Assembly: GCA_035288545.1 (NCBI GenBank)
Contig: DATEAB010000045.1
Coordinates: 1,329 to 65,328, forward strand
DNA length: 64,000 nucleotides
From: an archaeon
GTDB taxonomy: Archaea > Aenigmatarchaeota > Aenigmatarchaeia > CG10238-14 > SCSR01
Direction of reading: 5' to 3'
The position numbers and the translations under genes were made by a program. Position 1 is the stretch's first letter. The number at the start of each line of letters is the position of its first letter. This document shows positions 6,193 to 45,710 of this stretch, piece by piece. Below the pieces are notes generated by a model, which saw only the letters and a program-made list of their open reading frames with translations, ran no database searches and was not told the origin of the DNA.

Positions 6193-6224
6193 AGTATTTT
6201 TGCCTTTACTTTCATTCTATTCAT

Positions 6225-7904: not shown

Positions 7905-7906
7905 CA

Positions 7907-8218: not shown

Positions 8219-8221
8219 AAA

Positions 8222-8615: not shown

Positions 8616-8678
8616 ATGCTGGTAATTCTATCAACAACTCTACTTTATAAATTTTGCCTTTTATTGTATTGAGGTTAA

Positions 8679-9425: not shown

Positions 9426-9428
9426 AAA

Positions 9429-9749: not shown

Positions 9750-9767
9750 AAGCAAGGTCAATATTAA

Positions 9768-29900: not shown

Positions 29901-31416
29901 CTACATTCCCATGGTCGACAATGGCCAGTGCAGTGGGGGATGCGGCGGCAATACCAGTGCATACGGCTGGAACATGACATACATCAATTATACGTACGGC
30001 ATAACCTCTCGCTCGACTGGATGGAACCCATCATGGGCGGGCAAAGTCTGCGTGAAGAACCAGTTCAACGTGACTAGATATGTGCAAGCCAACCAGCTCG
30101 CCATCACGATCAATAGCAGCGTGCGCGTGGCAGTGGTCGACAACCGAACCGCTGGAGTGTACGACACTGTCATACTCAACAACACCGAGGGCAACATAAC
30201 AATTTTGAACACAACAGACATCAATTCAAGGAAGTACGGCTCGAGCGCGCTCTACTTGTGGTCGATAGAGGACTGCGGATATGTGAAGTTTGTCAACGCC
30301 TCGTCAGGCGCGCTGCCTAGCTCAGGCAACTGGGGCGGCTCTCATCAAGCCAACACCAACTTCACCATTCCTTACGTAATCACTCTTGCCAACACGCCTC
30401 AAGCGTCAGTCAACGTCAGCATAAGGTCAATTGGCAAGCAGGACGACCGCGGTTTCGGATTTGAGGGCAAGATGACAGTAGGGGACACGCCAAGAGGGAA
30501 CTACACCTCTGTGCCGGTCAACGCGACGACTGATACGAACGGCATCGCGTTTGTCGGAGTGAATGTCTCGGCAAGCGGGCGCCTTGTTGCTTTCTGGAAG
30601 ATCGACACCACAGCAGGCGACACAGACATAGCCACGATGAGCAGCGCTACATTTTTCGAGTCGAAGGCTTTCAGCACGAACGGCTACAGCGTTTTCGACC
30701 TTCCGATGAGATATGTCAATCTCACTTATGTCGCAAATTCCGGAGGCGGATACCTGGGGGCGTTCGCGGCAGCAAGCGAGCCGTGGGTGTACGCTGCGAA
30801 CGTTACAGAAACGAATGCGAATGATTTTGTCCGCGACGGCACTGCTGCGACTTATTACATTGTCTATGCTCCTAACAGGAACGCCACGAAGACATCAACA
30901 TCAACAGACCTTTCCGGCTCGGCTGCTGACTACCTCAACGCCACAACCAGCATCGGTGGAACGAGTCTGGCAGTGGCATGGATGCATCCCAACTCTTCTG
31001 CGACCGGCTCTCTACAGTTCGTATTTTTCCAGACAAGTCCGCAGGGAAACAGGCCGACGACCGTCACCACAGGGACTGAAAACATAACTGTTGCGGTGTG
31101 TGGGGAAGGATATGAAAAGCCGAACGCGCGGCCGAAGGAAGGGGCTGCAGTCAGGCTGACTGTGACAGACTGGTCTGCATTCCCGCCTTCAACTAAGAAC
31201 TTGCAGATGTATGAGATGCAGAACCACACGGCCATCGCTCTGGGCAGCTCGGCAGTGACAGGACCGAAGGGATGCGCTCTCCTCAACGTCGGCCCAGGCC
31301 AGCTCAGCACGTGGCCGTCAGCAAGCGCAGGCAAGCCTCCAGTGTTCATCGAAGGAACAGTCACCTCGGGCAGCTTGGTTGAGAGCGTGTACGTCACAGA
31401 TGTTTTCAGGATTTAA
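26902..31416 (+). CDS. Giant secreted cell-surface protein (1504 aa) rich in Asn/Thr/Ser and N-glycosylation sequons
   Basis: N-terminal signal/TM MGVLINSIKILFFIIFLTVIFINYFAFPVLA. Dozens of N-x-S/T sequons (NIT, NVT, NGS, NAT...) run throughout. No C-terminal TM segment. Probable S-layer or adhesin-type glycoprotein. Confidence 0.6.
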   Translation: MGVLINSIKILFFIIFLTVIFINYFAFPVLATISLNVSASLTTQLNKNITIKGSIVNTTTSDTIAGINVTAVVNGSGASQTTGADGTFRFNITAPNTPGEKFVTITTNSSSLRTETIPIFATNLTSGSISYVGNFPPFTNGSNMTINITLFNGTIPFANYFPNVSIYKSNGGRISWGIYNYSASTGTGGFITFNVTIPASAEIGQYAIVVERGALFTIFEIRSNYMMAVSTMSTADERTSNFAPSGTVNVLAKVRTTTGNPTSATGISALITLPNGTVRNISLSVHPTLTGQYNKTFTETSASGQYQVAIYAVVAGAQLQANTVFSTKVFEVDLEMQKKFFMEWGGQAAFKAGGVVALDIVPINMTDDTTINVGGAVWPACNTTYLKMVDVTYPNGTSINSSQPIVGVSFSTSQSLTDSVCKINFTAPAVTGAYGLKVNVTVAGVTEQAEGFFAVQKIFLKVSPVSGLGGQEDFMSVVSPGENVTLDMTAYNLTTEAQIDGTSISNIVAKRIVPLEFATGSSELTTLNQSATTGSNPQILVQIPSSVMGPAIVEIEASVGTEKVIGTAFFISNYLSGFLFPASGMGGEGGGDFGGAPFASCSGTLSFRGNVNEVKTGTAAQGVSVVSIIQAREELTGRDVSGMLSIAGTTASDSNGQITINVTFSPSSGYGFSGFYFMIFNASYKGNSAGLPAGFMCKQLDFWPTIQAIGTTQESWRVSPTSGVNVTISNVARLNDSAIITNRSYLTLPTVFNFNPSKGGMKVLIPQNISALNATFVQRGNNYTAVDSNYVSLAIYPQNFTSGGQALTEWPNGFLDLQPRITSVDIDGASDTGFGGFQVVGFDAWIEGWDWGAKGAGQTLSYVVDVRANVSKNVTNAAGENGIVPDTVFVRTSASNNMTGFTVRIGRPWEGEMTTLTAVNATLLSDGWNHSSNTSFERWNVTFVIPQTTKKGEAQLVITVNNSNGQETDIDLWFTITKYTVILPSEEGLGSQPSSPFDAYYIPMVDNGQCSGGCGGNTSAYGWNMTYINYTYGITSRSTGWNPSWAGKVCVKNQFNVTRYVQANQLAITINSSVRVAVVDNRTAGVYDTVILNNTEGNITILNTTDINSRKYGSSALYLWSIEDCGYVKFVNASSGALPSSGNWGGSHQANTNFTIPYVITLANTPQASVNVSIRSIGKQDDRGFGFEGKMTVGDTPRGNYTSVPVNATTDTNGIAFVGVNVSASGRLVAFWKIDTTAGDTDIATMSSATFFESKAFSTNGYSVFDLPMRYVNLTYVANSGGGYLGAFAAASEPWVYAANVTETNANDFVRDGTAATYYIVYAPNRNATKTSTSTDLSGSAADYLNATTSIGGTSLAVAWMHPNSSATGSLQFVFFQTSPQGNRPTTVTTGTENITVAVCGEGYEKPNARPKEGAAVRLTVTDWSAFPPSTKNLQMYEMQNHTAIALGSSAVTGPKGCALLNVGPGQLSTWPSASAGKPPVFIEGTVTSGSLVESVYVTDVFRI

Positions 31417-31502: not shown

Positions 31503-32918
31503 ATGGCAGGAATTGCAAACGCAAACACGGCAAAAAAGAAAAGTAACTTGAAAAATAATTTCATTTGCACTCTGGCATTTGTTTCAATGGCATTTATTTC
31601 GTTTTCAATCTTGTTTTCAATCTTATTACCGCAACAAGTTTTTGCATCAGTGACAGAAGTCACGACATCAGCTTCTGCCAGCAGAGCGACGACTGGAACG
31701 AGCGTGACGATAACAGCTTCGGTAACGGCAAGTTCGACCGAAACAACTTCAGTTAATTTTGTCTCAACCCCTTCCGGGATAACAGTCAGCGATCCTGCGG
31801 GCGGTTCCTATTCCTCAGTCGCTGTGTCCACCTCTCCCACGACTAAGACATTCACAATTTCAGCTGGCAGCGCCAACACTTACACTTATTACGTGCAGGC
31901 AGGAAGCGTTCAGTCAACTTCTGCAACAATTGTTTTCGTTGATCCTTCTGCCATTGTAGTCACAGGTGATCCGAGTTCGACCACTCAAACTAGCGGCAGC
32001 GAGTTTGACATTGAAGTTAACATGGAAAATAGTCAGTCTTCCTCGGTTACAACTTCTTATTCTCTCAATCTTCCTTCAGGTTATTCCGTTACTGCAGGCG
32101 ATGCATCTTCAGATACAATAACCCTTGGGCCAAATTCTATTGTGCAGGTGGCATGGACAATAAAAGTTGGCTCTGCATCAGGAACTATTACTTTTAAAGT
32201 TGGAAGCAATTCAAACGCGTTTTCCACTTCTGTTACTTGTAGTGATTGCGTAACAACTTCTCCGTCCTCCGTAACTGCTGAATTAAAAGCAAGTGCTTCA
32301 GTAATAGGTTCACCATACAACAGAACATTCTTTTCAATCGCTGCTGAAACGATAAAACTTATTCCTGAAACAGATTTGTCAAATACCAATTCAAGGTTTA
32401 CAGAAATATCGTTTGCAGTTAAGGAAAGAGTTACAGACGTTGTATTTTTTGTACAAGGATTTGGTTATCTTGTTAAGCCGAGTGATGCCCCGTCCGTTGA
32501 TCCAGGAAAAGTTTATCGATACATAAAAATTTTAACAACTAATCTCCCTGATGAAAAAATTAAAAACGCCACAGTAAAATTCAAAGTTGAGAAAGCATGG
32601 TTTACTGAAGAAAAAGTCGATGCTTCTACAATCGCGCTTTACCGTTATGTGAATGGAAAATGGGACAAACTGTCGACAGTTAAACTGACTGAGGATGCTA
32701 ACTTTATTTACTACCGCTCTACAATTCCAGGATTTTCATATTTCACAATCGCAGGAGAAGCCCCAACAACAACAGCAACACAACCTCAAGAAACTCAAAC
32801 TACGACAACTACACTGCCGACAGGAGTAACATTTCCAAGTGAAATAATAATTGGAATAATTATAATTTTTGTAATCGTTGTTGCTGTTCTACTGTTCATG
32901 CGAAAAAATAAAAAGTAA
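31503..32918 (+). CDS. Secreted Thr/Ser-rich surface protein with C-terminal Thr-rich linker, TM helix and basic tail (archaeosortase/PGF-CTERM-like anchor architecture)
   Basis: 471 aa. N-terminal hydrophobic signal. C-terminus TTTATQPQETQTTTTTLPTGVTFPSEIIIGIIIIFVIVVAVLLFMRKNKK. Confidence 0.55.
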   Translation: MAGIANANTAKKKSNLKNNFICTLAFVSMAFISFSILFSILLPQQVFASVTEVTTSASASRATTGTSVTITASVTASSTETTSVNFVSTPSGITVSDPAGGSYSSVAVSTSPTTKTFTISAGSANTYTYYVQAGSVQSTSATIVFVDPSAIVVTGDPSSTTQTSGSEFDIEVNMENSQSSSVTTSYSLNLPSGYSVTAGDASSDTITLGPNSIVQVAWTIKVGSASGTITFKVGSNSNAFSTSVTCSDCVTTSPSSVTAELKASASVIGSPYNRTFFSIAAETIKLIPETDLSNTNSRFTEISFAVKERVTDVVFFVQGFGYLVKPSDAPSVDPGKVYRYIKILTTNLPDEKIKNATVKFKVEKAWFTEEKVDASTIALYRYVNGKWDKLSTVKLTEDANFIYYRSTIPGFSYFTIAGEAPTTTATQPQETQTTTTTLPTGVTFPSEIIIGIIIIFVIVVAVLLFMRKNKK

Positions 32919-33031
32919 AAAATAAAATATCGATAATCCTACTTTCATGCATTTAAATTCTAAGAACTAATTTTTATCTAGGGTGTATAAAGATCATTTC
33001 AATCTGGGAAATTTTAAAAGTCGCTAAATAT

Positions 33032-33379
33032 TTGATTATTCCAGGTTTGTTTTTGTTCTATCTCAGTTTTCTTGACGTTATAGTTGCATCAATTCCTGCA
33101 GTCTTCGAGCAGGGATTCGGCGGTTCGGGCGGCGGTGGAGTTGAAGTAATAGGTATGGGATATGCTGTTTCAGTCTCTGTTACACGTCCTTATTTGTTTG
33201 ACCTAATAAGACTGCCTGTTTACGGAGGCCCGCTCGGCGACATTTCTGGAATTCATACAACTTTCTTCGCAATTCTCGGTTTCCTGCTAGTTGCATTTGT
33301 TGCTTGGGATGTTTGGTCATTGCTCAAAGGAAAAACGAGTTATACTTATGGGTCTAAATATCAATGGAGGAAGTGGTGA
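33032..33379 (+). CDS. Small membrane protein (hypothetical)
   Basis: 115 aa with two hydrophobic helices and a Gly-rich stretch GFGGSGGGGVEV. Confidence 0.3.
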   Translation: MIIPGLFLFYLSFLDVIVASIPAVFEQGFGGSGGGGVEVIGMGYAVSVSVTRPYLFDLIRLPVYGGPLGDISGIHTTFFAILGFLLVAFVAWDVWSLLKGKTSYTYGSKYQWRKW

Positions 33380-33567
33380 CAAAAACTATGGATGGAGTCA
33401 GGTTTGGAAGAAGAGGTTTTGACTGGAGAAAATTGGCGTGGGCAGTTGCACTGGCGGCGTTGCTCGGTTTCATAACAGGATTATTCACAAATTTTCACGA
33501 GGTAAGTTGGGCTGTGTTTTTCATTATTTTGTATCTTGAATACAGATTGACAATGCGACGAATCTAA
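33364..33567 (+). CDS. Small membrane protein (hypothetical)
   Basis: 67 aa with two hydrophobic helices. Overlaps the previous ORF by 16 nt. Confidence 0.25.
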   Translation: MEEVVTKTMDGVRFGRRGFDWRKLAWAVALAALLGFITGLFTNFHEVSWAVFFIILYLEYRLTMRRI

Positions 33568-33616
33568 AACATTTATATAGGAAAAAACCAAAATTAATTT
33601 ATCAAATTAGAGGGTT

Positions 33617-34315
33617 TTGATGGAGAAGAAATACAAATATATTCTTAAATTAGGAGTTCCAATTGTCATAGTATTGGCATTAGTCGGTGTTGGAGGTTTC
33701 TATCTAGGTACAACTACTGTAACTACATCGCCTCTTGAAGCATCTATTTTCTCACCGCTCCATGTTGCATTTGTTTGCGTGAGTCCTGTAAGACATCCAG
33801 GCGACCCTGACTCTGTTTTGTCGCAATACGCTGATTGTTCTCACAATGTTTACACCCGTCAGGGAATGAATATGACAAGAGATTATCTCTTCCGTCCTGG
33901 GGCAGGACTACAAGGAATTAACGTGACTAGTTTGGGAGTGACTGGAAACGGAACAGCCCCAGGTCAAACAGGAACTGACAGATGCATAGCAAACGGAACT
34001 TTAGGTGCAGCTGGTTCAGGATGCAATGATTATACCAACAATGGACTGCAACCAGCAGTCGGAAGCGTCTTTGATGTTGTCGGTGGTCCAAGCGACTTCG
34101 GAAACATTTCAATTTCCAAAGTATTTACTTGCACACAATGTACAAACACTGGAATAAACGCAACTGGACTCTACAATTCGACAACAGTCACAGCAGGCGG
34201 AGCCAACTCGACCAGCGTGGGTGGTCTCAGTCTGTTTGCGGAAGCAAACTTCACATCAGCTACACTACAGACAAATGACCAGATAAACGTAACTTGGTTC
34301 GTGTGGACCCAGTAA
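33617..34315 (+). CDS. Secreted Cys- and Gly/Thr-rich protein with N-terminal signal anchor
   Basis: 232 aa. MMEKKYKYILKLGVPIVIVLALVGVGGFYLG signal anchor, multiple N-glyco sequons, 8 Cys. Confidence 0.4.
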   Translation: MMEKKYKYILKLGVPIVIVLALVGVGGFYLGTTTVTTSPLEASIFSPLHVAFVCVSPVRHPGDPDSVLSQYADCSHNVYTRQGMNMTRDYLFRPGAGLQGINVTSLGVTGNGTAPGQTGTDRCIANGTLGAAGSGCNDYTNNGLQPAVGSVFDVVGGPSDFGNISISKVFTCTQCTNTGINATGLYNSTTVTAGGANSTSVGGLSLFAEANFTSATLQTNDQINVTWFVWTQ

Positions 34316-34380
34316 TTTAAAATTTTTCTTTGAAATTTTAAAATAGTTAAATTTATTTTCTAATTTTTCCAATAAATTAC

Positions 34381-35193
34381 TTGATAATAATGCCATTTCA
34401 AAAACGTCACATTCGATGGACTAAAGGCAAAAAACTTGATAATAAATATAGAGAAAAAATTTCAATCGCAGTGAAAAAATGGAGTGAGAATAATCCAGAA
34501 AAATTTAGGGCTATTTATGAAAAACAAAAGGGAAAACCAAAACATTCTGAAGAATTCAAGAATAAAATGAGTGAAATTAAAAAAGGAAAACATCAGTCTC
34601 CAAATACAGAATTTAAGAAAGGATATCATCAACCTGTTGAATGGATAGAAAAAATGCGACAAAAAAAGTTAGGTATGCCTTCTGATAAGAAAGGGAAAAC
34701 CTATGATGAATTATACGGTAATCAAAGAGCATTAGAAATTAAAGAAAAACAAGCAGAAAGGCATAAAAATAAGAAACTTTCAGAAACTCATCGACTAGCT
34801 ATTAGCATAGCACATAAACAAAATTTTGAAAATGAGAAATTCAAGAGTCAATGGGCAGCTAGATTTCATAGAAAACCTGGACCATCAGAGAAAAAAATGA
34901 TAGAACTGATTAATTTATTTGGCCTTCCCTTCAAATATGTCGGCAATTATAAACTCTGGATTGGCAATAAAAACCCTGACTTTGTGCATACTCAAGGTAA
35001 GAATCAAGTAATCGAGTTATTTGGGGAGTATTGGCATCAAACAAAACCTAATATAAAGTACCATCAAACTACAGAAGGAACTATGGATCATTACAAAAAG
35101 GCTGGTTATAAATGTCTTATTATTTGGAGCCAAGAAATGAAGAATCCTCAACACGTCTTGCAGAAAATAAAGGCATTTTCAGAGGCAAGCTGA
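34381..35193 (+). CDS. Homing-endonuclease-like protein: NUMOD3 DNA-binding repeats fused to a Vsr-like (PD-(D/E)xK superfamily) nuclease domain
   Basis: 270 aa, K-rich, in a very AT-rich segment. At least three NUMOD3-type repeats (KGKKLDNKYREKISIAVKK; KGKPKHSEEFKNKMSEIKKGK; KNKKLSETHRLAISIAHK). C-terminal NPDFVHTQGKNQVIELFGEYWHQ matches the Vsr motif PD-v...IfvdGcFWH. Confidence 0.6.
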   Translation: MIIMPFQKRHIRWTKGKKLDNKYREKISIAVKKWSENNPEKFRAIYEKQKGKPKHSEEFKNKMSEIKKGKHQSPNTEFKKGYHQPVEWIEKMRQKKLGMPSDKKGKTYDELYGNQRALEIKEKQAERHKNKKLSETHRLAISIAHKQNFENEKFKSQWAARFHRKPGPSEKKMIELINLFGLPFKYVGNYKLWIGNKNPDFVHTQGKNQVIELFGEYWHQTKPNIKYHQTTEGTMDHYKKAGYKCLIIWSQEMKNPQHVLQKIKAFSEAS

Positions 35194-35384
35194 ACTATCT
35201 ACTTCTCTACAATAACGCTTAAAAGGCATCTTCTACAAATTAATAATATAAAACGTTGTACAACAAATTAAACAACAACATTAATCAATAACGTTAATCA
35301 ACAACATTGTCCTTTGTCCAGAAGTGGTAAGAACTGCGAGCAGCAACGTTTGAGTAAAAGTAGAAATAGCGAGCAGCATTTGGA

Positions 35385-35642
35385 ATGAACGACGAGAACC
35401 ACTTCAAGGAAAGGATAGAGGAAATTTTAGCGAAGCATCCAGAAGGTTTATCTATAGCCGAAATTTCTCGACTTCTTGGCGCGCATAGACACACAGTTAC
35501 CAAATATATCCAATTTCTAATGGGTGCTGGAGTAATTTATCAACGCGATCTCGGCACTGTGAAATTGCATTACTTAGCAAGCAAACTCCCCGAGAAAGAA
35601 AAGCTGCTTCTTGAAAAATTAAACAGGCGGGGTAAAAAATGA
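35385..35642 (+). CDS. Small winged-HTH transcriptional regulator
   Basis: 85 aa. LSIAEISRLLGAHRHTVTKYIQFLMGAGVIYQRDLGTVKLHY is an HTH plus wing. Stop overlaps the start of the giant gene (ATGA). Confidence 0.6.
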   Translation: MNDENHFKERIEEILAKHPEGLSIAEISRLLGAHRHTVTKYIQFLMGAGVIYQRDLGTVKLHYLASKLPEKEKLLLEKLNRRGKK

Positions 35643-38600
35643 AAGTTAATAAAATTATTGCTAATAGAATTATTCTTCTTGCTGCAGTCTTCATCTCATT
35701 TTCATTAATGGGAATTTTTGTTAGTTTAATTCTCTTTGCCGAACCTGCTAAAGCAGAAGTAAGAGTTTGGAGATACAATGCTACTAATGCAAGTCTTTTT
35801 TCCGTGTTTAATAAAAGTGATGATGACACGACAACTCCACCTGCTTGGACTTCAGGATGGGACGGATCAAACGTTAGTGCTAGTTATTATGCAAACGTTT
35901 TAGGTGCTCAAGGCACTGGTATTAACGTTACTTCAGGTGGTCAGAATGACGAACCTTGGGTGAGATTTAATGTAACTATCATTCAAAACAAGTCGCAAAT
36001 TGTTTGGGTGCATGTCTCATTGACGCAGAGGAAAAATTCTTTGGCAGATGGAGGCGAAGATTGCACTTATATTATGGCTAATTATACTTCCTCTGGAGGT
36101 ACGGGACAGTGGTTTAAATTTGCCTCCGATGTCACAGGCATAACAGATACACAAAGATCCTTTAATCTTTCACGTCTGACTGACTCTGATCAGTTTGAAA
36201 ATATTACGGATGGTTATGCAACAGGAAAAAATCTACAAGTCGGTAATCTTGTAATAAGAGCAAACGGTATTAATGAAGATGCTGATGAAGGATGTGTTGT
36301 TACAAACGCTAGCGTACATGTTGGATATGACGACACTGCGCCGATATGGAGCAATGCAACGAACAATTTCACGTACGCCTATCCGAGCATAAAAACTGTT
36401 GCTGCCATGAGAGGTGAACTTATTAACATTTCTGCAAACGTGACCGATAACTACGGCGTGTTTACAGCATGGCTTTTGACAAACGAAACTGGTGGAGACA
36501 GAAACTACACGTACGACCAGCTTGCAAATTCTTCAAACTACACGATAAGAATTTTGGGTGGAGGGTCGATAATAGACCAAGCTCATAACACAACTACTGA
36601 AGGTGCGATGGTTAACTGGACTTGGCAAAACATGACAGGCGCCCCACGTGCAATCAAATGGCATATTTTTGTTAACGACACAGCAAACAACACGAACGGA
36701 ACTACTAACGGCGCGAGCGGAATCGCCGATATAGGAAACTTCACGATGTGGGGATGGGCAAACGTTACTCCTCCTAACTGGCTAAGTTCACAAATGGTGC
36801 CTGCGTCTGCAACTCCAGGCAATGTAGTTTACATACAAGTCAATGTGAGTGACGTGAACTTGACATGGCTAGAGCCAATAAATAGTTACAACGTAACTTT
36901 CTTTTACCGCCAAGAACCAGGAAATTATGTTTCACTTGGAGCCAACTGGACAAATTCTTCAGGAATTGCTGGATTTTACTGGGACACTACTGGCTTGTCA
37001 GGTGGAAGATATTTCCCTATGGCAAACATAACTCACAATGCAACTCTTTTCTACAACACAACTTATGTTCACAATAGCACAAACGGGACTATCGATCTTG
37101 CGGCAGCAGCTGTTGTTAACTACGGTAATGGTACGCTTCAAGTAGGCGTCAGCTCGAGTACAGATAGAGCACAAACTGTGAAAAGAGCACCGATCATCAA
37201 TCTTGTACAGAATCCGATAACCGCCCAAATAGTTGGCCTTTTCAAGTCATTAACAAATGCAATAAACGCCCTGACAAGCATACCTGCAATTTTTGCGCCT
37301 CTAAGACTTTCAATCATATCACCAATTTTGTCCACTCCAATTTCTAACTTTTTCACACAAGTGAAATCAATAGCTCAAGCCATAACTTCAAATTTCGTTT
37401 CTTCAAATCTCGGATATATTTCAAGATCAATAGCAAACGCAATAACAACTTCTCCTTTAACTGCAAGAATAGTTTCCTTAATAAAAATTATAACATCTCC
37501 ATTTGTTTTTGCATTTCAAACCATTGCTGGAAAAGTTTTGCAATTTCAAACATCACTCACATTAAGCGTGACGTCAACCGCTTCAAGAATATTTACAGGA
37601 GTCAGACCGATATCGAATGCAATTACATTTTCTACAATAACTGCCAGAATAACGAATTTCGGCAGAAGCCTGATTAACGCGTTATCATTTAACACAATTG
37701 CAACAAGAACTGCATCGTTCTTCAGAACAATCTCTCAGCCATTTACATTTACTACTCAAGTAACGGGCGTGTTCGCGCAGGGCGTTCAAGTTATTAACAG
37801 AGCTGTGGAACTGGCACTTTCAATAACCAATACAGCAACAAGAATTTTCACAGCGGTAACATTTCCAACACAGCAGCTTTCTTTCACAACATTAGTGCAG
37901 AGAATAACATTGCTAAACAAAGCTTTAACCAACACACTTTCATTTAACGCTCTAGCAATTAGATCAGCAACGTTTCTAAGAATTGCATCTCAATCATCCA
38001 CCTTCTTAACAAACGTTACAACTGCAATAACTATACTCACGTCACGAGTTGCTACTTTAACGATTTCTATGATAAACACAGCAACAAGAATTTTCACAGC
38101 GGTAACATTTCCAACACAGCAGCTTTCTTTCACAACATTAGTGCAGAGAATAACATTGCTAAACAAAGCTTTAACTAACGCAATATCATTTAACACAATT
38201 TCTTCCAGAATTGCGATATTTTCTCGTCAAGTTTCCCAACCCTTTGTTTTCAGTTTCGATCTTTTCACTAGAGTAATTGTTGGAGGAATTGCAGAAAGAA
38301 CTGCTGCTTTGCAAATATCATTAAGTAATTCGGCATCAGCTGTTTTAACTGCAGCACGTTTTCCAACATCAGCAATAACTACAAACACAATAGTATTAAG
38401 AACGCAACTTCTTTTCAAAGCACTTTCACAAACTCTAAACTTCTCAACAATATCGGCAAGAATACTCTCAACAACGAGAACAGTCTTCACAAACTTAACA
38501 TTCTTAACTTCGAGCATTAGGACAAGAATAGTACCAAGAGTAACAACTGCAGCGATTACGTTCTCTAACGCAATTGAAAAATCATTATTATTTGTAAGAC

Positions 38601-40153
38601 CGATAACAGCGCAAATAACTTTTGCTCAAAATGCAATAAAGCAACTTTCCTTCTTTAGAACAATCACTCAAACTATTAATTTAAATGACTTGGTTATAAG
38701 AAGTCAGCCATTTTTGAGAATTGTCACAGGAACTTTCAGATTTAATTTCGGAGCAACTGCTGTAAATCAAACTGGAACCACCACTACCACAACATCCTCT
38801 GCTGGTCCAGGCCCAGCACCAAGTGCAGGCAGTGGAGCAGGCAGTGGAGCAGGCGGTGGTGCAGCCGCTGCCCCAGGAATTCCTATCTCGATACTAGCAC
38901 CACCACCGTCATTCATTCCAACCCCAACGGTTGCAATTGACTTTACACAAATAGAAGTGCTGCAGGAAGTAGTTCCGGATCAAGCTCAAAACATATCGTT
39001 TGAAATTAAGAACAAAGTCAACACGACTCTGGGCAATGTTACTGTCACTTTCAGTGGAGTGCCTGAAGATTGGATTAAAGAAAAACTTGTTGGCAAGAGT
39101 CTTAATCCAAATGAAAAAACAGAATTCGAAATCCCCGTATCGCCATCTCGAGGCACAGGGAGTGGGGATTATCGTGTGGATATTAGTGTAAAAGCCGGAG
39201 GAGTCGTCGATAAAGGATTTTTCATAATTCGTGTCAAACCTAACGCAGGAGAAACCAACGCACCTTCTGTGACAAGGTCAGTTGTGGTGAACAGTGAGGA
39301 GAAAAAGACAACCTTCACATTAAATGTTGTAAATGTGAAAGGAACAGACACAGTAGAAGTGCAAGAAGATATACCAAAAACAATTGCGAACAGCACAAAG
39401 GAAATATTTTTTGACACTCCGCCGACAAAGATAATAAAGGACGATCCGATTGTCGAATGGCAACTCAAAAATTTCAAGAAAGGAGAGAGCAGGATCATCA
39501 AATATTCTGTTCAAAAAATTTTGGTAGATTACGCCCCGTATGTTTACTTCCCATTGAAGCAATTTAGCATATCTTCCAAATCAACATTAGAAAACTTCAA
39601 GTTGCTACTGTTTGACATTCCACCCTTCTATTCGGGACATGCGTCAATTGTTACGTTAAGAATTGAAAACTCAGATTCAAAGTCCCACAACTTCAGCTTC
39701 GCAATGGGACTTCCGGAAAAATGGAGCGTACAGCCGCAGCAGATAAACGAAATTATTGGTGACAACGAGCAAAGGGAATACAAGCTCTCTGTTTATGCTC
39801 CTTCGAGCGAACCTTCTGGAATTCGCATCATTCAGGCTCAATATGCCTGGGATGATTCAGCTGTAATAAGAGAGTATAGTGTGATTGTTTCACAAATAAT
39901 TTCATTTGACACCATAATCTACATCACCATTGTAATAATTGTAGTATCGGCAGCATATTTTGCAATAAAATCCTATATATCTTATAGAGGAACTCCAATG
40001 GAAACCTTACGAAAACTGAGAGCAATAGTAAAAAGCAGGACACCGATTCATCTAGCGCCTCATGAGCATTCCAAACAATACAGTGGCATTTTTTACGACG
40101 CGCTGTATCATTCAAAACATCTGTCGAAAAACAAAAAGGAGAATAAGTTATGA
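35639..40153 (+). CDS. Giant cell-surface protein (1504 aa) with N-terminal signal/TM, N-glycosylation sequon-rich ectodomain, internal tandem repeats, Gly/Ala/Pro linker and C-terminal TM anchor
   Basis: N-terminus MKVNKIIANRIILLAAVFISFSLMGIFVSLILFAEPAKA. Degenerate ~35-40-aa repeats span about aa 520-1010, including two exact 100-nt DNA copies. Linker GPGPAPSAGSGAGSGAGGGAAAAPG. C-terminal TM IIYITIVIIVVSAAYFAIKSYI. Confidence 0.6.
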   Translation: MKVNKIIANRIILLAAVFISFSLMGIFVSLILFAEPAKAEVRVWRYNATNASLFSVFNKSDDDTTTPPAWTSGWDGSNVSASYYANVLGAQGTGINVTSGGQNDEPWVRFNVTIIQNKSQIVWVHVSLTQRKNSLADGGEDCTYIMANYTSSGGTGQWFKFASDVTGITDTQRSFNLSRLTDSDQFENITDGYATGKNLQVGNLVIRANGINEDADEGCVVTNASVHVGYDDTAPIWSNATNNFTYAYPSIKTVAAMRGELINISANVTDNYGVFTAWLLTNETGGDRNYTYDQLANSSNYTIRILGGGSIIDQAHNTTTEGAMVNWTWQNMTGAPRAIKWHIFVNDTANNTNGTTNGASGIADIGNFTMWGWANVTPPNWLSSQMVPASATPGNVVYIQVNVSDVNLTWLEPINSYNVTFFYRQEPGNYVSLGANWTNSSGIAGFYWDTTGLSGGRYFPMANITHNATLFYNTTYVHNSTNGTIDLAAAAVVNYGNGTLQVGVSSSTDRAQTVKRAPIINLVQNPITAQIVGLFKSLTNAINALTSIPAIFAPLRLSIISPILSTPISNFFTQVKSIAQAITSNFVSSNLGYISRSIANAITTSPLTARIVSLIKIITSPFVFAFQTIAGKVLQFQTSLTLSVTSTASRIFTGVRPISNAITFSTITARITNFGRSLINALSFNTIATRTASFFRTISQPFTFTTQVTGVFAQGVQVINRAVELALSITNTATRIFTAVTFPTQQLSFTTLVQRITLLNKALTNTLSFNALAIRSATFLRIASQSSTFLTNVTTAITILTSRVATLTISMINTATRIFTAVTFPTQQLSFTTLVQRITLLNKALTNAISFNTISSRIAIFSRQVSQPFVFSFDLFTRVIVGGIAERTAALQISLSNSASAVLTAARFPTSAITTNTIVLRTQLLFKALSQTLNFSTISARILSTTRTVFTNLTFLTSSIRTRIVPRVTTAAITFSNAIEKSLLFVRPITAQITFAQNAIKQLSFFRTITQTINLNDLVIRSQPFLRIVTGTFRFNFGATAVNQTGTTTTTTSSAGPGPAPSAGSGAGSGAGGGAAAAPGIPISILAPPPSFIPTPTVAIDFTQIEVLQEVVPDQAQNISFEIKNKVNTTLGNVTVTFSGVPEDWIKEKLVGKSLNPNEKTEFEIPVSPSRGTGSGDYRVDISVKAGGVVDKGFFIIRVKPNAGETNAPSVTRSVVVNSEEKKTTFTLNVVNVKGTDTVEVQEDIPKTIANSTKEIFFDTPPTKIIKDDPIVEWQLKNFKKGESRIIKYSVQKILVDYAPYVYFPLKQFSISSKSTLENFKLLLFDIPPFYSGHASIVTLRIENSDSKSHNFSFAMGLPEKWSVQPQQINEIIGDNEQREYKLSVYAPSSEPSGIRIIQAQYAWDDSAVIREYSVIVSQIISFDTIIYITIVIIVVSAAYFAIKSYISYRGTPMETLRKLRAIVKSRTPIHLAPHEHSKQYSGIFYDALYHSKHLSKNKKENKL
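37200..38700 (+). repeat. Intragenic tandem repeat array (degenerate ~105-125-nt units; two 100-nt copies identical at 37829 and 38078)
   Basis: The string aatacagcaacaagaattttcacagcggtaacatttccaacacagcagctttctttcacaacattagtgcagagaataacattgctaaacaaagctttaac occurs twice, 249 nt apart. Flanking units share the protein pattern ...T(A/I)(T/S)RI..F.R.(I/V)SQPF.F... Confidence 0.7.
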
Positions 40154-41400
40154 GAGCTAGAAGTATTGCAATAATTTCGTTGATTTTAATTGCAATTTTG
40201 GTTTCAGCACTTTCAGATGTGTTTACTGTAAGCGCGCAAGAGAAGCTAGCCGAAATTTACACTTTAGCCTACGAGCCAGAAAAACCGGTCGTTCTTGAAA
40301 GTATTCAGTTTACAGTTGGGGTGAAGAACAATGAAAATCAATTACGAAATTACAGACTGGAACTCATAATAACGAAAGATGGAATATTCAAGGATTCGCA
40401 AGAGTTCACATTTAATTTGAAACCTGAATCAAGTACAGCATTTTCTCCAAACTATATTCCTGACGACATAAATGATTTTGATCTTATCACAAAACTTTAT
40501 GACGCAACCACTTCTCAACTTTTAGATTTGAAAACTTTGAAATTCAGAGTGGTTAGCGAAATAGGGCCATTTGATTTGGAAGTAAACGTTCCGTCTAAAT
40601 TTATAAAAGCAAACTCCATTGCACCGGTAATTCTAACTCTTTCAAATAAGGGAATCAATGGAACAGATATAAACGTCGAGATTGAATTGAAATGTGTTAA
40701 TCAAAGCAATATTAGAAGTTCATTCTTTTTCTTCATTCCAACGACCTCTGTGGAAACAAAAATAACTCCCATTCAAACTTGTGATGAGGAAGGTCCACAC
40801 GAAATATCTGCGAGCATAATACTTTTCAACAAGACATGGATATCTTCGGCCAATCAATTTTTCCTTAATAAAACTTATCAGGAACTTCTTTTTGATGTTC
40901 CAACTAAGATTAACATTAATGCCGGTGAGTCAAAAATATTCGACGTGCAAATTCGCAACACGGGAACGACCACTCTTCATAACCTAAGACTTCTCGTTTC
41001 AATAATCTCAAATAACTGGATAAAAATTTCTCCGCAAGCAGTCACCCAGTTGAATCCCGGAGAATTTTCAATATTTGTCGTAAACATAACAGTGCCAAAA
41101 GATGCATCATCACAAGAATTTCCAGTTGGAATAGCAGCGGCCGCCGACGAGTTGCTGACAAGAAAGGAGACAACTTTTAATGTGGCGGCTCTATCGGCCC
41201 TCCCGCAGATATTAAATATTTCTAGTAAAGAAACTATTCCAAAAATTGTTCTGCCAAGAATTTTAACCGATAATGCAACTTACATTCTTATCGCAGTTTT
41301 AATTTTGGTTGGCATTTTTGCATTAATAAAAACGATCGAGGTACAGCGTAGAAGCAGAAGGGAGGAAGTCGTTAGAAAGTTGAAGGATCTGATTGGTTAG
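40150..41400 (+). CDS. Secreted protein with C-terminal TM anchor (hypothetical cell-surface protein)
   Basis: 416 aa. Signal MRARSIAIISLILIAILVSALS, C-terminal TM YILIAVLILVGIFALI, then a basic tail. 4-nt overlap with the giant gene. Confidence 0.45.
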   Translation: MRARSIAIISLILIAILVSALSDVFTVSAQEKLAEIYTLAYEPEKPVVLESIQFTVGVKNNENQLRNYRLELIITKDGIFKDSQEFTFNLKPESSTAFSPNYIPDDINDFDLITKLYDATTSQLLDLKTLKFRVVSEIGPFDLEVNVPSKFIKANSIAPVILTLSNKGINGTDINVEIELKCVNQSNIRSSFFFFIPTTSVETKITPIQTCDEEGPHEISASIILFNKTWISSANQFFLNKTYQELLFDVPTKININAGESKIFDVQIRNTGTTTLHNLRLLVSIISNNWIKISPQAVTQLNPGEFSIFVVNITVPKDASSQEFPVGIAAAADELLTRKETTFNVAALSALPQILNISSKETIPKIVLPRILTDNATYILIAVLILVGIFALIKTIEVQRRSRREEVVRKLKDLIG

Positions 41401-41511
41401 TCGATTAGCTGATCAGTTGCTTGATTAGCTGATCGATTAGTTGAATTTAATTGCAGCAAAACAAAATTTAATTATGAAAAGTTTGCAGGAAAAGAAACGG
41501 GGGTAGGATGA

Positions 41512-42537
41512 GTGGGAAAGGTAATCGGAGTTTTTTCAGGAAAAGGTGGAGTTGGAAAGACGACACTCGTTGCTAATTTGGCAACTTCTCTGACGAAGAA
41601 CTTTAATAAGAAAGTCGTTGTCGTTGACAGTAATTTTTCGACAAGCCATCTCGGATTGCATTTTGGTTTGTATGAAGAGCCGAAAGTAACTCTCAGGGAC
41701 GTTATTCTTGAAAATGAGTCGTTGGTTTCAGCATTTTACATTCATCCATCCACAGGAGTGCGATTGATTCCCGCGCCCATCAGTGGTAGTCTTGACGAAG
41801 TAGTCGTGAATGGACTCGCAAATGTGGTCGAACAGCTCAAAGAAGACAACGACATTGTTATTCTTGATGCTGCGCCAGGATTAGGAAGAGAAGTTATTAC
41901 TACGATGAAATCGATTGATGAAGCCTTGATTATTGCGACTCCTGATATTCCTTCCATCACGGATGCACTCAAAACAACAAATCTAATAAAAAAAGTTAAC
42001 GACAAAATAAATATTTCTGGTGTGATAGTGAATAGAGTCAGAAATGAAAAGTATGAGCTGACGAGAAAGGAAATAGAATCTGCGTGCAATACAAATGTTG
42101 TAACTCACATACCAGAAGATTCAAAAGTTCCTGAGTCGATTGCAAAAGGGGTACCACTTATAGAGCTCCATCCCTATTCAAAAGCGAGTGTTGCTTTTGG
42201 CAGACTCGCAGCAGCAATGGTTGGTCAGACTTATGAGCCCAGAAGTTTTGTTTACGCTTTAATGAAACTTTTAGGAATTGTAAAAGAAGGGTATGTTAAG
42301 ATACCGCCGAGAATTGAAAGGCAACAGAGAGTAAAGAAAGTGCGATTGAAAAAAGACGAAGAAGAGAAACAAACAAAACAACAAAAAGAAAAAGGAAAAG
42401 GGAGAGAAAAGGAAGATGAAATGGAAGACGTAAAAAAATTACATGAAGAAGTTGAAGAATCAATAAAGAGTGACATAAAGAAAAGATTAGCGATGAAGAT
42501 AAAAGAAAAATTGAAGGAAAAGGGAGTTGGGGAATGA
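41512..42537 (+). CDS. MinD/ParA-family ATPase (TadZ/CpaE-like) with K/E-rich C-terminal tail
   Basis: GTG start 8 nt after GGGGGTAGGA. Deviant Walker A GKGGVGKTT at residues 10-18. ...IVILDAAPGLG is the Walker B region. Last ~70 aa are K/E-rich and low-complexity. Confidence 0.7.
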   Translation: MGKVIGVFSGKGGVGKTTLVANLATSLTKNFNKKVVVVDSNFSTSHLGLHFGLYEEPKVTLRDVILENESLVSAFYIHPSTGVRLIPAPISGSLDEVVVNGLANVVEQLKEDNDIVILDAAPGLGREVITTMKSIDEALIIATPDIPSITDALKTTNLIKKVNDKINISGVIVNRVRNEKYELTRKEIESACNTNVVTHIPEDSKVPESIAKGVPLIELHPYSKASVAFGRLAAAMVGQTYEPRSFVYALMKLLGIVKEGYVKIPPRIERQQRVKKVRLKKDEEEKQTKQQKEKGKGREKEDEMEDVKKLHEEVEESIKSDIKKRLAMKIKEKLKEKGVGE

Positions 42538-42927
42538 ATGACGCTTAAACAATCTGAGAAGGATGAACTTATAGAAGAACTTTTGGATGCAGTCGCCGAG
42601 CAGGTTTCCGATTTGCTTGCAAGCTCTAGCTCAGTAAAAATTAGGGGAATAAATTCTTATACTGATAAATATCTCGACAATATAATCGAAATTAAACAGA
42701 GAATTTCTGCACTAGAGACGAAAACAGAAAAAAGACTTGAAGACTTTGAAATAATTGTTAACGATTTGGAGAAACAACTTAATGAAAAGTTTCATTCGGT
42801 ACATAACGAAAGCGAGCAAGAGTACTTCAGACTCACAGATCAAATAGCGAATTTACGTGCGGCGGCCATAAAGTTAAGCAATGAGATAAAGGAAATAAAA
42901 ATTCAACTCGCTCTGCGAAGGACTTAA
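42538..42927 (+). CDS. Coiled-coil protein (hypothetical)
   Basis: 129 aa, heptad-rich (LEKQLNEK..., IKEIKIQL). Begins 1 nt after the stop of the ATPase gene. Confidence 0.35.
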   Translation: MTLKQSEKDELIEELLDAVAEQVSDLLASSSSVKIRGINSYTDKYLDNIIEIKQRISALETKTEKRLEDFEIIVNDLEKQLNEKFHSVHNESEQEYFRLTDQIANLRAAAIKLSNEIKEIKIQLALRRT

Positions 42928-42969
42928 TAAAATATTTTTACTTTATAATGCAAAACTAATTCTAATATT

Positions 42970-43377
42970 ATGAAAATTGAGAAGGCGCAAGCAGCTCTTG
43001 AATACTTGATGATAACTTCGATCGCGCTCGCAGTAATAATTCCAGTTTTTTACTACTCCTTCTTCTACTCCAGCGGTTCTGTGAATTATTCCCAGGCTCT
43101 GGACGCTGTCAACGCGATTGGAAAAGGAGCTGATTACGTTTATTCACTTGGCGTCGGGAGCAGGACAAGAATCTTGGTTTCAATCCCCAGCAACGTGATT
43201 AATTACACAATTTCAACCAAAGCTATTACATATCAAATACGCTCATCATCGGGCGCAACTTCATCGATCACAGCATTCACAAAGGCAAACATAACTGGAA
43301 CCCTTCCAACAAATCCAGGCAATTATTACATTTCCCTAAACATGACAGAACAAGGTGTTGTAATATCAGTGTCGTGA
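42970..43377 (+). CDS. Type IV pilin-like protein with class III signal peptide
   Basis: MKIEKAQAALEYLMITSIALAVIIPVFYY: basic N-region, A-Q, conserved E at +5, then a hydrophobic helix. This is the archaeal prepilin peptidase substrate pattern (QxALEYLM). Confidence 0.6.
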   Translation: MKIEKAQAALEYLMITSIALAVIIPVFYYSFFYSSGSVNYSQALDAVNAIGKGADYVYSLGVGSRTRILVSIPSNVINYTISTKAITYQIRSSSGATSSITAFTKANITGTLPTNPGNYYISLNMTEQGVVISVS

Positions 43378-43799
43378 GAAAGTTGAAGGCACAGGTAGGA
43401 GTCGAGACACTCTTTATTATTGGTTTTTTATTCATCATTCTAGTGGCAGCACTTTACATTTATTTCAGCAGAAGTTCGTCAATCGCTAACACAGAAGTAA
43501 TTCTCTCAGCAAGAAAAATTTGCAATGAATTCCAAACAAGCATAAATCAAGCAGCGTCAAGCAGCTTCGGTTTTCGAACGAAAGTTATTCTGCCAGATAA
43601 AATATTTTCAAACTCTTTGAACGTGACGGTTGACGCACAAAACAAAATAATATTTTTGAATTTGAGCTCAACTCTCTTGCTTTGTCCGTTGTCCTTTCAA
43701 AATATAACAAACGGCAACTCGTCATTCTTTTCCATACCTTCTGGCAATATTACAATTAGGACAAATGAGAGCGGGGTAGTCATCATTGAAAAAATGTGA
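43374..43799 (+). CDS. Type IV pilin-like protein with class III signal peptide
   Basis: MRKLKAQVGVETLFIIGFLFIILVAALYIYF. 4-nt overlap with the upstream pilin. Confidence 0.5.
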   Translation: MRKLKAQVGVETLFIIGFLFIILVAALYIYFSRSSSIANTEVILSARKICNEFQTSINQAASSSFGFRTKVILPDKIFSNSLNVTVDAQNKIIFLNLSSTLLLCPLSFQNITNGNSSFFSIPSGNITIRTNESGVVIIEKM

Positions 43800-44298
43800 A
43801 ATGAAATTTGAAGTCAAGAAATGTAAAGGACAAATAACGTCGACTGAATTCTTGATAGTTTCTGTAGTTCTTGTCATTCTTTTCACTTTTGCAACAAACT
43901 TTTGGAACATTGTGGCCTTCAGATTCGGCGAGAAGAGCTTCAGAAGCGGTTTGGAGCTCACCGCCCTGGACATTTCGGACATCCTCATCAACACACCTGG
44001 AACACCCGGCAACTGGCAGGACGACACTTCGAAAATATTTTCGCTTGGGATTTCGGACTCGACTCATGTCATGAATGAAAAGAAACTCATTGCATTTACA
44101 AACCTTAACTACACTCAAGCAAAAAAGGCTTTAGGCGTTCCAGCATACGACTACAAATTTAGGATTAGAACACTCAACGGGACTGTGATTTACCAGTCTG
44201 GGCTAGACCCTTCTGCAACAAGCCAAATTGTTGTCATCACTCGTTTCGTACTTTTGAAAAATGATATCATGAAAATGGAGTTTGGTGTTTGGTCGTGA
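43786..44298 (+). CDS. Type IV pilin-like protein with class III signal peptide
   Basis: ...KKCKGQITSTEFLIVSVVLVILFTFA (KGQ..E then hydrophobic). Overlaps the upstream gene. Confidence 0.5.
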   Translation: MKKCEMKFEVKKCKGQITSTEFLIVSVVLVILFTFATNFWNIVAFRFGEKSFRSGLELTALDISDILINTPGTPGNWQDDTSKIFSLGISDSTHVMNEKKLIAFTNLNYTQAKKALGVPAYDYKFRIRTLNGTVIYQSGLDPSATSQIVVITRFVLLKNDIMKMEFGVWS

Positions 44299-44747
44299 AA
44301 ATATTCAAAAATGAAAAAGGATTTTTCTTTGCTGTTGATTCGCTAATTGCTGTAGTGATAGCTTTCATCTTTATTGTTGGAGTTGTCTTTTTTGTTAATC
44401 GCGCTTCGGAAGACAAGTTTGCTAACTTGTATCTTGAGAAAGTTGCTAATGACATTCTTTTTGTGATGAATAAAAACGAAACACTGCAGAGTTTGGACAA
44501 CAATAAGATTCAAGGAGTTCTTGCAGGAGTTCTGCCGAAAAATCTAGCTGCTAACCTAAACGTAACTACTTTCAAATGCACCGACCAGAGCTGCAATACT
44601 TTCACGTACAACAACAACATAAACATTCTAACTCCTGCGAATGCTGTTGAAAGCGATGCAGTGATTGCGCGGACAGGTTTTGTGACTTTCAAAGCAGGTA
44701 AGATAGATCTTTTTGCAACTGCCGAGCTCAGGATTTGGTTGATATGA
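44289..44747 (+). CDS. Type IV pilin-like protein with class III signal peptide
   Basis: ...KNEKGFFFAVDSLIAVVIAFIFIVGVVFF. Overlaps the upstream gene. Confidence 0.45.
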   Translation: MVVKIFKNEKGFFFAVDSLIAVVIAFIFIVGVVFFVNRASEDKFANLYLEKVANDILFVMNKNETLQSLDNNKIQGVLAGVLPKNLAANLNVTTFKCTDQSCNTFTYNNNINILTPANAVESDAVIARTGFVTFKAGKIDLFATAELRIWLI

Positions 44748-45685: not shown

Positions 45686-45710
45686 AAGGAGAAAATAGAA
45701 AGGGATTGAA

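Follow-up and report, generated by a model that had tools for sequence, protein, structure and literature searches.

Why does an archaeal gene for a small winged helix-turn-helix (wHTH) protein overlap the start of a gene for a giant, repeat-bearing surface protein, and do the exact DNA repeats inside that second gene make its product variable? The locus lies in a 64,000-nt stretch (hereafter the window) of contig DATEAB010000045.1 (GenBank assembly GCA_035288545.1), from an archaeon of the lineage Aenigmatarchaeota. The explanation that we favor, with a probability of roughly 0.6 for the whole, is that a regulatory wHTH cassette joined to a type I glycoprotein stalk opens a ~15-kb cluster for an archaeal type IV filament, of the sort that has a split platform and a MinD ATPase, and that a patch of 98 identical nucleotides in the stalk gene is not a switching device.

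The arrangement described in the first-pass annotation, a small wHTH regulator gene coupled by ATGA to a 1504-amino-acid (aa) open reading frame (ORF), reads as stated, and the observation of a wHTH gene coupled to the gene for a giant repeat surface protein is real:

35385-35642, + strand: wHTH gene, 85 aa, first of the cluster (ORF listing)
35639-35642, + strand: ATGA shared by the wHTH gene stop and the giant gene start (sequence)
35639-40153, + strand: giant gene, 1504 aa, for a type I membrane-anchored surface protein (ORF listing and hydropathy)

The ATG of the giant gene at 35639 overlaps the TGA stop of the wHTH gene at 35640-35642, within the junction sequence AAAAAATGAAAG (longer context, GGCGGGGTAAAAAATGAAAG). 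A purine-rich, Shine-Dalgarno-like run, GGCGGGG, is found 7-13 nt 5′ of the giant gene start, inside the wHTH frame. The junction between the giant gene and the following gene for a 416-aa protein is likewise an ATGA, at 40150-40153 behind AAGGAG, and most other junctions in the pilus cluster are also overlaps, the 4-nt overlap being the norm along the operon. The idea that stop-start coupling is unusual here has to be qualified, because such overlaps are normal in the operon and the pairing of a wHTH gene with a large surface protein is conserved in a large family.

The wHTH protein matches the Pfam models RPA_C (27.8 bits, cut-off 22.6) and HTH_IclR (25.4 bits, cut-off 22) and has no named family in NCBIfam. 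Searching with it returned 417 clusters at E<=1e-5, some of them labeled Bathyarchaeia or Aenigmarchaeota at source and some on contigs as long as 840 kb, whereas 2.9 million viral contigs yielded no family member. When the wHTH alignment was used for a degenerate-pattern scan of metagenome contigs, 49 loci came up. Among the ~41 readable junctions between wHTH gene and downstream gene (the cargo), 19 are 4-nt overlaps and ~28 fall within 8 nt, usually preceded by GAGG or GGTG. The downstream products have a hydrophobic start in 35 of 42 cases, and 19 are at least 790 aa long, with many more cut by contig ends; only some contain the 20-aa repeat described below.

Several of these loci resemble the window closely, and its wHTH protein is 43-51% identical to the small ORFs of L011, L013, L014 and L008. 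L011 (JGI Ga0315280_10000390) encodes an 86-aa wHTH protein (44% identity) and, after a 5-nt gap, a 3015-aa repeat protein, which is followed by a 433-aa NEW3 protein, MinD, an ATPase and then two T2SSF genes. In L013 a small ORF overlaps by 4 nt the gene for a 3023-aa protein, with a 419-aa NEW3 protein and MinD behind it, and in L014 a 73-aa wHTH gene overlaps the gene for a 1723-aa repeat protein. Pilus genes flank the wHTH gene in a different order in L029, L033, L055 and L057. A scan of genome contigs with the window MinD for syntenic genomes returned only five distant bacterial MinD loci. The cargo varies behind a conserved wHTH gene, so the conserved unit is the wHTH gene plus a large secreted protein. 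From these comparisons, the cassette appears to be general and undescribed in the sources checked. Two wHTH copies ~40 kb apart occur on a single 272-kb contig (Ga0315285_10000008; L034 and L036), where they precede ORFs of >3200 aa and 437 aa with gaps of 190-350 nt, not overlaps.

The giant protein can be divided into the following parts, given with their coding positions:

35639-35758, + strand: N-terminal signal peptide or transmembrane (TM) segment, aa 1-40, with an AKA/EV cleavage-like site (hydropathy peak 2.57 at aa 11-29)
35759-37153, + strand: sequon-rich extracellular head, aa 41-505 (sequon count)
37154-38758, + strand: array of ~25 units of 20 aa, aa 506-1040 (autocorrelation, self-built hidden Markov model (HMM) and register)
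38759-38938, + strand: uncharged Thr/Ser and then Gly/Ala/Pro linker, aa 1041-1100 (composition)
38939-39898, + strand: membrane-proximal immunoglobulin (Ig)-like region, NEW3/NPCBM_assoc, aa 1101-1420 (Pfam PF10633, two stretches)
39899-39970, + strand: C-terminal TM anchor, aa 1421-1444 (hydropathy peak 2.50)
39971-40153, + strand: basic cytoplasmic tail of 60 aa (aa 1445-1504), plus the stop codon (sequence)

A signal-peptide-like N-terminus, NEW3 domains and a C-terminal TM helix together bear out the description of a large membrane-anchored surface protein. Hydrophobic segments are present at both ends (aa 3-37, followed by AKA/EV, and aa 1414-1449), but the N-terminal one, first taken for a TM segment, is probably a cleaved signal peptide. 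A PGF-CTERM/archaeosortase sorting signal is excluded by the 60 residues that follow the TM helix, and the protein has neither a PGF motif nor an NCBIfam match for such a signal. The high density of N-x-S/T sequons noted for the whole protein is confined to the head, with 38 observed in aa 41-505 vs 9.9 ± 2.7 in shuffles; the repeat array has 3 vs 8.0 expected.

A whole-protein search of 5.8 billion proteins recovered only the protein itself and the relatives P0002 and P0003, both of which match just residues 200-500; within the head, aa 231-493 are 42% identical to P0002 and 32% to P0003. The preceding part of the head (aa 38-230) matches the downstream protein of L021 at 1.2e-15 and resembles the N-terminus of P0053. 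The Gly/Ala/Pro linker was found as described, at aa 1041-1100 (A 20, G 18, P 17, T 15, S 12%; charged residues 0), and its DNA contains a 12-nt tandem repeat, GCAGGCAGTGGA x3.3, at 38825-38864. PF10633 scores above its gathering threshold of 24.4 bits both in the whole protein (39.3) and in the C-terminal fragment (42.9), and the region at aa 1101-1420 matches the giant proteins of L030, L031 and L048 at 1e-63 to 1e-67. NCBI names the identical-length variant HLC39882.1 "NEW3 domain-containing protein [archaeon]".

The N-termini of these large proteins have a feature of their own. A leader, G-[KR]-K-S-L-[AI]-K-[IV]-S, precedes the hydrophobic core in the products of L013, L022, L026, L030-L033, L048, L055 and L064 and in P0004-P0008, and the window protein carries a degenerate version, NKIIANRIILL. 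The leader shared by large proteins encoded downstream of wHTH genes may represent a distinct signal-peptide class.

Autocorrelation of the giant protein peaks at 40, 20 and 80 residues. A self-trained HMM detects ~19-22 units of 20 aa in residues 525-1030, and the combination of this HMM, autocorrelation and manual register gives ~25 units over aa 520-1035, which are grouped into pairs of 40 aa and, above these, into blocks of four units (20+20+20+22-25, or about 82 aa). The ~14 repeats of 35-40 aa reported at first correspond to the pair level, but the basic unit is 20 aa, in ~25 copies. The repeat has Arg at positions 11 and 17. The array (aa 506-1040) is rich in T (16%), I (12%), S (11%), A (10%), L (10%), F (9%) and R (7%) and is strongly cationic (K+R 45, D+E 6). 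A short 20-aa HMM derived from related proteins detected just four of the units in the window protein, and neither this protein nor nine relatives has a Pfam or NCBIfam model for the array.

When the repeat region by itself was searched exhaustively with HMMER, 108 relatives were found at E<=1e-3, 33 of them at E<=1e-10, the best being from Bathyarchaeia; the homolog search suggested in the first-pass annotation thus found relatives in many archaea, as giant surface proteins, and also among tailed-virus proteins. All of them share the 20-aa period, and the DNA repeats in their genes are spaced by multiples of 60 nt. In a profile built from 561 units of these relatives, the consensus is S-[LI]-[STN]-[LIF]-[STN]-D-[IVA]-[VA]-[TS]-R-[LVI]-x-[ST]-[FLI]-[FLI]-R-[TS], and each of the two Arg is present in 86% of units. 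The first group of relatives is made up of very large proteins, hydrophobic at the N-terminus and with a TM helix at the C-terminus, among them P0004 (3254 aa, Bathyarchaeia), P0005 (3015 aa) and P0006 (3023 aa), with arrays of up to about 1500 residues. A second group is without TM helices, often has LamG domains, and matches PHROGs of unknown function or annotated as "virion structural protein"; in a tailed virus, the gene for P0111 is flanked by the capsid gene and the head-completion genes, and P0111 has a 62% relative in IMG/VR. A third group is represented by P0040 (812 aa), a secreted protein with ~nine 20-aa repeats and a GH5-like enzyme domain, the latter read from sequence motifs, not from a profile search. 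P0040 suggests that the repeat is able to act as a generic extracellular spacer module. Across these many proteins the 20-aa repeat family appears to be general and undescribed in the sources checked. A protein search with the repeat alignment returned only two proteins, since matches to low-complexity words dominated it, and a viral-type member queried by tblastn against the INPHARED phages gave no match, possibly due to the low-complexity filter.

The Bathyarchaeia contig L008 has two repeat genes in succession. An 837-aa ORF (143-2656), almost entirely made of 20-aa repeats and ending in a TM helix, precedes and overlaps the gene for the 3254-aa repeat protein (2653-12417). The two genes share a 219-nt stretch at 85% identity, and the wHTH gene of this contig is found 4 kb downstream, surrounded by many small ORFs.

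What fold the array adopts is a question on which the evidence conflicts. A PDB profile search returned no natural protein for the array, only the designed helical repeat proteins DHR14 (5h7c, E 3.7e-19) and 5cwh. The hydrophobic moment of the unit profile is 1.0-1.24 at 100-110 degrees vs 0.05-0.73 at 160-180 degrees, and the profile has an S/T/N-D motif at the expected helix-cap position. AlphaFold run 2 (aa 640-890, 55 sequences) gave nothing but helices of 16-18 residues joined by turns of 2-3 residues, with a few fused pairs, at a predicted local distance difference test (pLDDT) score of 62. The natural alpha-solenoid families HEAT, TPR, Sel1 and Arm have no Pfam match over aa 506-1040 or in the relatives' arrays; beta-helix and pentapeptide repeats have none in the window protein, and precomputed Pfam data place a Beta_helix domain in the relative P0010, elsewhere in the protein. 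A number of observations tell against helices. The repeats are rich in the beta-branched residues Thr, Ile and Val; the predicted template modeling score of run 2 is 0.24, and a Foldseek search of its model against the PDB found nothing below E 4. In run 1 (541 residues, 20 sequences, pLDDT 46), the first 130 residues, which contain the only blocks above 60, came out as helices, and the rest of the array as beta hairpins at pLDDT below 57.

The rival explanation that survives best, possible in our view though unlikely, takes up this last result: the array would be a beta-hairpin or beta-solenoid fiber, perhaps trimeric like viral fiber shafts. Run 1 places alternating strands of 4 and 8-10 residues with a 20-aa period over most of the array, the composition (Thr, Ile, Val and Ser) would suit such a fiber, and relatives of the repeat occur in structural modules of tailed viruses. 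Trimeric beta fibers are common in those modules, and monomer prediction would score such folds poorly. However, the strand region of run 1 stays below pLDDT 57 and the deeper alignment of run 2 gave all helices with higher confidence. The hydrophobic moment has its maximum at 100-110 and not at 160-180 degrees, and the PDB profile matches are helical designs only, with no Pfam match to beta-helix or pentapeptide repeats. On balance, a stalk of 40-aa alpha-helical hairpins is probable and more likely than a beta fiber; the earlier guess of beta-solenoid or Ig-like repeats is not favored, since the moment, the DHR14 match and run 2 all lean helical.

Downstream of the giant gene, the cluster continues with genes expected of a type IV filament system:

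40150-41400, + strand: 416-aa membrane protein, NEW3/CARDB-like domain, C-terminal TM helix (Pfam)
41512-42537, + strand: archaeal MinD-type ATPase (TIGR01969, 203 bits vs cut-off 201.75)
42538-42927, + strand: 129-aa predicted coiled-coil protein (weak coiled-coil Pfam matches)
42970-45685, + strand: five consecutive pilin-like genes (class III-type N-termini in translations)
45711-46739, + strand: CBS-domain protein (profile searches)
46770-48329, + strand: FlaI/TadA-type secretion ATPase (NF058587 2.7e-82; TIGR03819 7.2e-59; Pfam T2SSE)
48393-49298 and 49298-50284, + strand: two T2SSF/FlaJ-like platform genes, a split platform (PF00482 in both)

With MinD, pilin-like genes, an ATPase and two platform genes behind it, the giant gene does head a type IV filament cluster, as had been proposed. 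The ATPase falls under the NF058587 equivalog cut-off and hence is not the archaellum FlaI itself. The five pilin-like ORFs have K-[AG]-Q/F/V and then a hydrophobic N-terminus (KAQAALEYL, KAQVGVETL, KGQITSTEFL, KGFFFAVDSL and KGVVSSLIVL), and the Pfam model Class_IIIsignal matches weakly (E 0.04, below cut-off). The 416-aa protein is 38% identical to the 433-aa protein encoded after the 3015-aa giant in L011, and the same arrangement recurs in L013; judged by this synteny, its gene is a conserved partner of the giant gene. L011 also has a 124-aa gene at the position of the 129-aa coiled-coil gene. A 20-nt unit, CTGATCGGTTAGTTGATTAG, repeated 2.8 times at 41389-41444, spans the stop codon of the 416-aa gene, and an AT-rich, TATA-like stretch lies between these repeats and the MinD start (GTG 41512); the two together may form an internal promoter or operator.

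Upstream of the wHTH gene, we identified a candidate control region:

35235-35312, + strand: putative promoter/operator, TATA-like AAATTAATAATATAAAA and then AACGTTGTACAACAA and two copies of CAACAACATT

AACGTT occurs three times between 35253 and 35351. Many related upstream regions have AATTTAATATA followed directly by TACAAC-N-TGTACAA-type repeats. TGTACA is present in 15 of 42 upstream regions vs 1.8 expected, and AACGTT in 10 of 42 vs 1.9; palindromes of other subgroups include ATCACTAGTGA and CACCATTGTT...AACAATGGTG. The position of the motifs at or after the TATA box suggests autorepression by the wHTH protein.

The locus might then work as follows. At its own promoter, the wHTH protein would recognize the repeats or palindromes next to the TATA box, and binding would set the transcription of its own gene and of the cargo. 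The ATGA overlap, together with the Shine-Dalgarno-like sequence in the wHTH frame, would link translation of the cargo to that of the regulator. Once its signal peptide is removed, the giant protein would carry its N-glycosylated head (aa 41-505) outermost from the cell, raised on a long stalk that is cationic and built from ~25 of the 20-aa repeats. Each unit would most likely form one amphipathic helix, paired as 40-aa hairpins, and below the stalk would come the flexible Thr/Gly/Ala/Pro linker, the NEW3 Ig-like domains, the TM helix and the 60-aa cytoplasmic tail. Together with the 416-aa NEW3 protein and the pilus machinery, the giant protein would function as an adhesin or a spacer.

Several points count against this explanation. 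The association with pilus genes is partial: L017 has a wHTH protein 72% identical to that of the window and shares the two upstream genes, yet its cargo, a 1169-aa Ig-repeat protein, is unrelated and there are no pilus genes in the vicinity. No prepilin peptidase was recognized among the ORFs of the cluster, the remainder of the window not having been searched. We infer DNA binding and autoregulation by the wHTH protein from its fold class and the upstream motifs, and adhesion from protein architecture and gene neighborhood. The upstream motifs, recognized by eye and by k-mer enrichment, are not the same in all subgroups.

On the same architecture, the giant protein could instead be a structural component of the envelope, S-layer-like or part of a sheath; its place beside the pilus genes would then be incidental or a reflection of envelope remodeling around the filament. 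We rate this as fairly unlikely. The wHTH gene does precede different large glycoproteins, with pilus genes not nearby, in L017, L023, L034 and L049, and adhesin-like proteins of type IV filaments that resemble S-layer proteins are noted in 10.64898/2026.04.22.720090. The window, however, already has a separate 1504-aa S-layer-like candidate at 26902-31416, and the subfamily with this C-terminal region is repeatedly followed by a NEW3 protein, MinD and pilus genes. The repeat also serves as a spacer in the secreted, GH5-like P0040, which suits a stalk module over a lattice.

A further rival concerns the small protein, which would not be the transcription factor of the operon and would be the remnant of a mobile cassette or act with another partner. 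Cargo genes are swapped behind the conserved wHTH gene, a homing-endonuclease-like NUMOD3 gene lies just 5′ of it in the window, L017 and L018, and some sources label family members transposase or Fic. The absence of the family from the 2.9 million viral contigs, its presence on contigs of up to 840 kb, a protein that consists of the wHTH fold only, and the repeated motifs beside the TATA box upstream all argue otherwise, and we consider this reading improbable beside that of a regulatory wHTH protein.

Two genes separate the wHTH gene from the more distant upstream region. A gene for a 232-aa membrane glycoprotein-like protein (33617-34315, + strand) is also 5′ of the wHTH gene in at least 12 related loci, at 28-84% identity. 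Between it and the wHTH gene lies the 270-aa gene (34381-35193, + strand) with the NUMOD3 motif of homing-endonuclease-like proteins, which among the related loci compared is present only in the window, L015, L017 and L018.

Does the DNA repeat make the protein variable? The longest exact internal repeat of the giant gene has two copies:

37832-37929, + strand: exact 98-nt repeat, copy 1
38078-38175, + strand: exact 98-nt repeat, copy 2, at an offset of 246 nt (82 codons)

An exact repeat had been reported as 100 nt identical at 37829 and 38078; it exists, with a length of 98 nt and a first copy that begins 3 nt later, at 37832. In 64 kb, an exact repeat of this length is far from anything expected by chance, and at 93% identity it extends to 131 nt. 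The offset of 246 nt is explained by the four-unit blocks of about 82 aa. When the 246-nt blocks are compared in 30-nt windows, identity is 30/30 inside the patch and 6-14/30 outside it. Because identity is limited to a 98-131-nt patch in otherwise diverged blocks, recent expansion or contraction of repeats is not supported. A patch with such sharp bounds fits a gene-conversion tract, not a fresh tandem duplication, and looks like recent gene conversion between two four-unit blocks. Five protein variants (members of the 90% cluster of the giant protein, consensus-level sequences) come from separate assemblies with contigs of 75.0, 65.8, 45.2, 45.2 and 45.4 kb. All are 1504 aa long and differ only at residues 242, 455 and 1219, outside the array, which is invariant. 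With five identical arrays, neither an assembly artefact nor common copy-number variation at the consensus level is likely.

The first-pass annotation saw potential for phase or antigenic variation in these repeats. In its strongest form this would be a contingency locus, where 82-aa blocks are gained or lost through RadA-mediated exchange or slippage, with antigenic or length variation in the population. Two identical 98-nt tracts 246 nt apart and in frame would provide the substrate, array length varies about tenfold among homologs (from ~9 to ~78 units), and patches of 85-89% identity exist in other members. We nevertheless find it quite improbable: five variants from separate assemblies have the same 1504-aa length and the same array, and identity is confined to the patch, not extended over whole blocks. 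Moreover, 246 nt is a multiple of three within the coding region, so an exchange would alter the length by 82 codons in frame and on/off switching would not be possible. An assembly artefact, for which the only argument is that the source is a short-read metagenome assembly, in which repeats are error-prone, can be set aside as highly implausible, given the same 1504-aa product in five assemblies, the intact reading frame and a repeat shorter than the typical read length.

Elsewhere in the window, a second ORF of exactly 1504 aa (26902-31416, + strand) has a signal peptide, many sequons and a G+C content of about 0.51, and its product is probably S-layer-like. It was considered as a paralog of the giant protein and rejected: the two are unrelated (best BLASTP E 2.2), and their equal length is apparently a coincidence. 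A gene for a 95-aa PqqD-like protein lies 5′ of this ORF, and a PqqD-like gene is found upstream in L011 and L017 too. G+C content is 0.355-0.406 over positions 32001-46000, the surface-protein and pilin part, vs 0.42-0.51 across most of the window; amino-acid composition or horizontal origin could explain the difference. The window is archaeal, with an archaeal signal recognition particle RNA at 21990-22262, and its sequence is identical to scaffold_948 of ENA ERZ28563803, a 75-kb contig of sample SAMN03842431. Rfam tRNA matches of 112 nt (8504-8615, − strand) and 121 nt (62210-62330, + strand) are presumably intron-containing; ARAGORN reported none.

Large adhesin-like proteins are known from archaeal pilus clusters, and their expression and non-Ig parts are little understood. 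The wHTH family, with at least 417 clusters, could flag genes for giant surface proteins in uncultured archaea and offer an entry point to their regulation. Archaeal surface proteins, virion proteins and a secreted glycosidase carry arrays of the 20-aa repeat that range from ~170 to ~1500 residues, and a family model together with a solved structure would annotate >100 very large "hypothetical" proteins. The tempting view of a phase-variable adhesin has been removed as unsupported. We also put forward a bolder proposal, speculative and rather doubtful as a whole: that three elements, namely the wHTH gene, the start that overlaps it and a conserved N-terminal leader (G-[KR]-K-S-L-A-K-[IV]-S plus hydrophobic core), form a lineage-wide expression cassette for interchangeable giant surface proteins in uncultured archaea (Bathyarchaeia, Aenigmarchaeota and others), and that the 20-aa Arg-ladder stalk is a module exchanged with virion proteins of tailed viruses. 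If so, the stalk would be an undescribed fold family of cells and viruses that holds a binding head at a set distance.

Among known systems, the closest are archaeal type IV filament loci, for which split platform genes, MinD and large adhesin-like proteins are on record (PMC4858521, Makarova et al. 2016; 10.64898/2026.04.22.720090). The system 1/clade 1 (Epd-like) loci described there share with the window a FlaI/TadA-type ATPase, two platform genes, several pilin-like genes, FleN/MinD and large secreted proteins. A term search of the two papers brought up neither an overlapped wHTH leader gene nor a 20-aa repeat stalk, and "wHTH" occurs 0 times in PMC4858521. In the same accounts, adhesins of the Epd-like loci are DUF2341/PilY-like or multi-Ig proteins, whereas the window protein has a 20-aa repeat stalk without a Pfam model; the window also differs in that no dedicated prepilin peptidase is seen in its cluster.

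Archaeal proteins of the NEW3/NPCBM-associated (PF10633) and CARDB types are a second point of comparison. Both the C-terminal third of the giant protein and the 416-aa protein match PF10633 above its cut-off and end in a TM helix, and it is from this match that NCBI names the giant protein. NEW3 covers only about 150 of the 1504 residues, and the name is silent on head and array.

The array resembles alpha-solenoids (HEAT, TPR and Sel1-like proteins; DHR14, 5h7c and 5cwh) in its 40-aa helix-turn-helix period, hydrophobic spacing and S/T-D cap. DHR14 is computer-designed, so its match reflects a resemblance of pattern, not ancestry, and no natural solenoid family was matched. The window units differ from alpha-solenoids in being extracellular and in having two conserved Arg residues, and their helical fold is a predicted one. 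The repeat proteins of tailed viruses (PHROG 23524 and 12240; LamG "virion structural proteins") share the 20-aa unit and the R-x5-R spacing with the window. Viral repeats are acidic or neutral, with Asp at unit position 6, and their proteins are without signal peptide or TM anchor, whereas the window array is strongly cationic. It is probable that the two share ancestry, with convergence of a simple repeat as the alternative.

For the wHTH protein, the nearest functional analog is EarA, a small dedicated regulator of a type IV filament operon that binds short repeated TACATA sites in the promoter (PMC5512572, PMC10665913). EarA is an activator with sites upstream of the transcription factor B recognition element (PMC5512572, PMC10665913), and earA is a separate transcription unit in Thermococcus strains that does not overlap the first structural gene (PMC10665913). 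We liken the two by function only. In the window the motifs follow the TATA box, which suggests repression.

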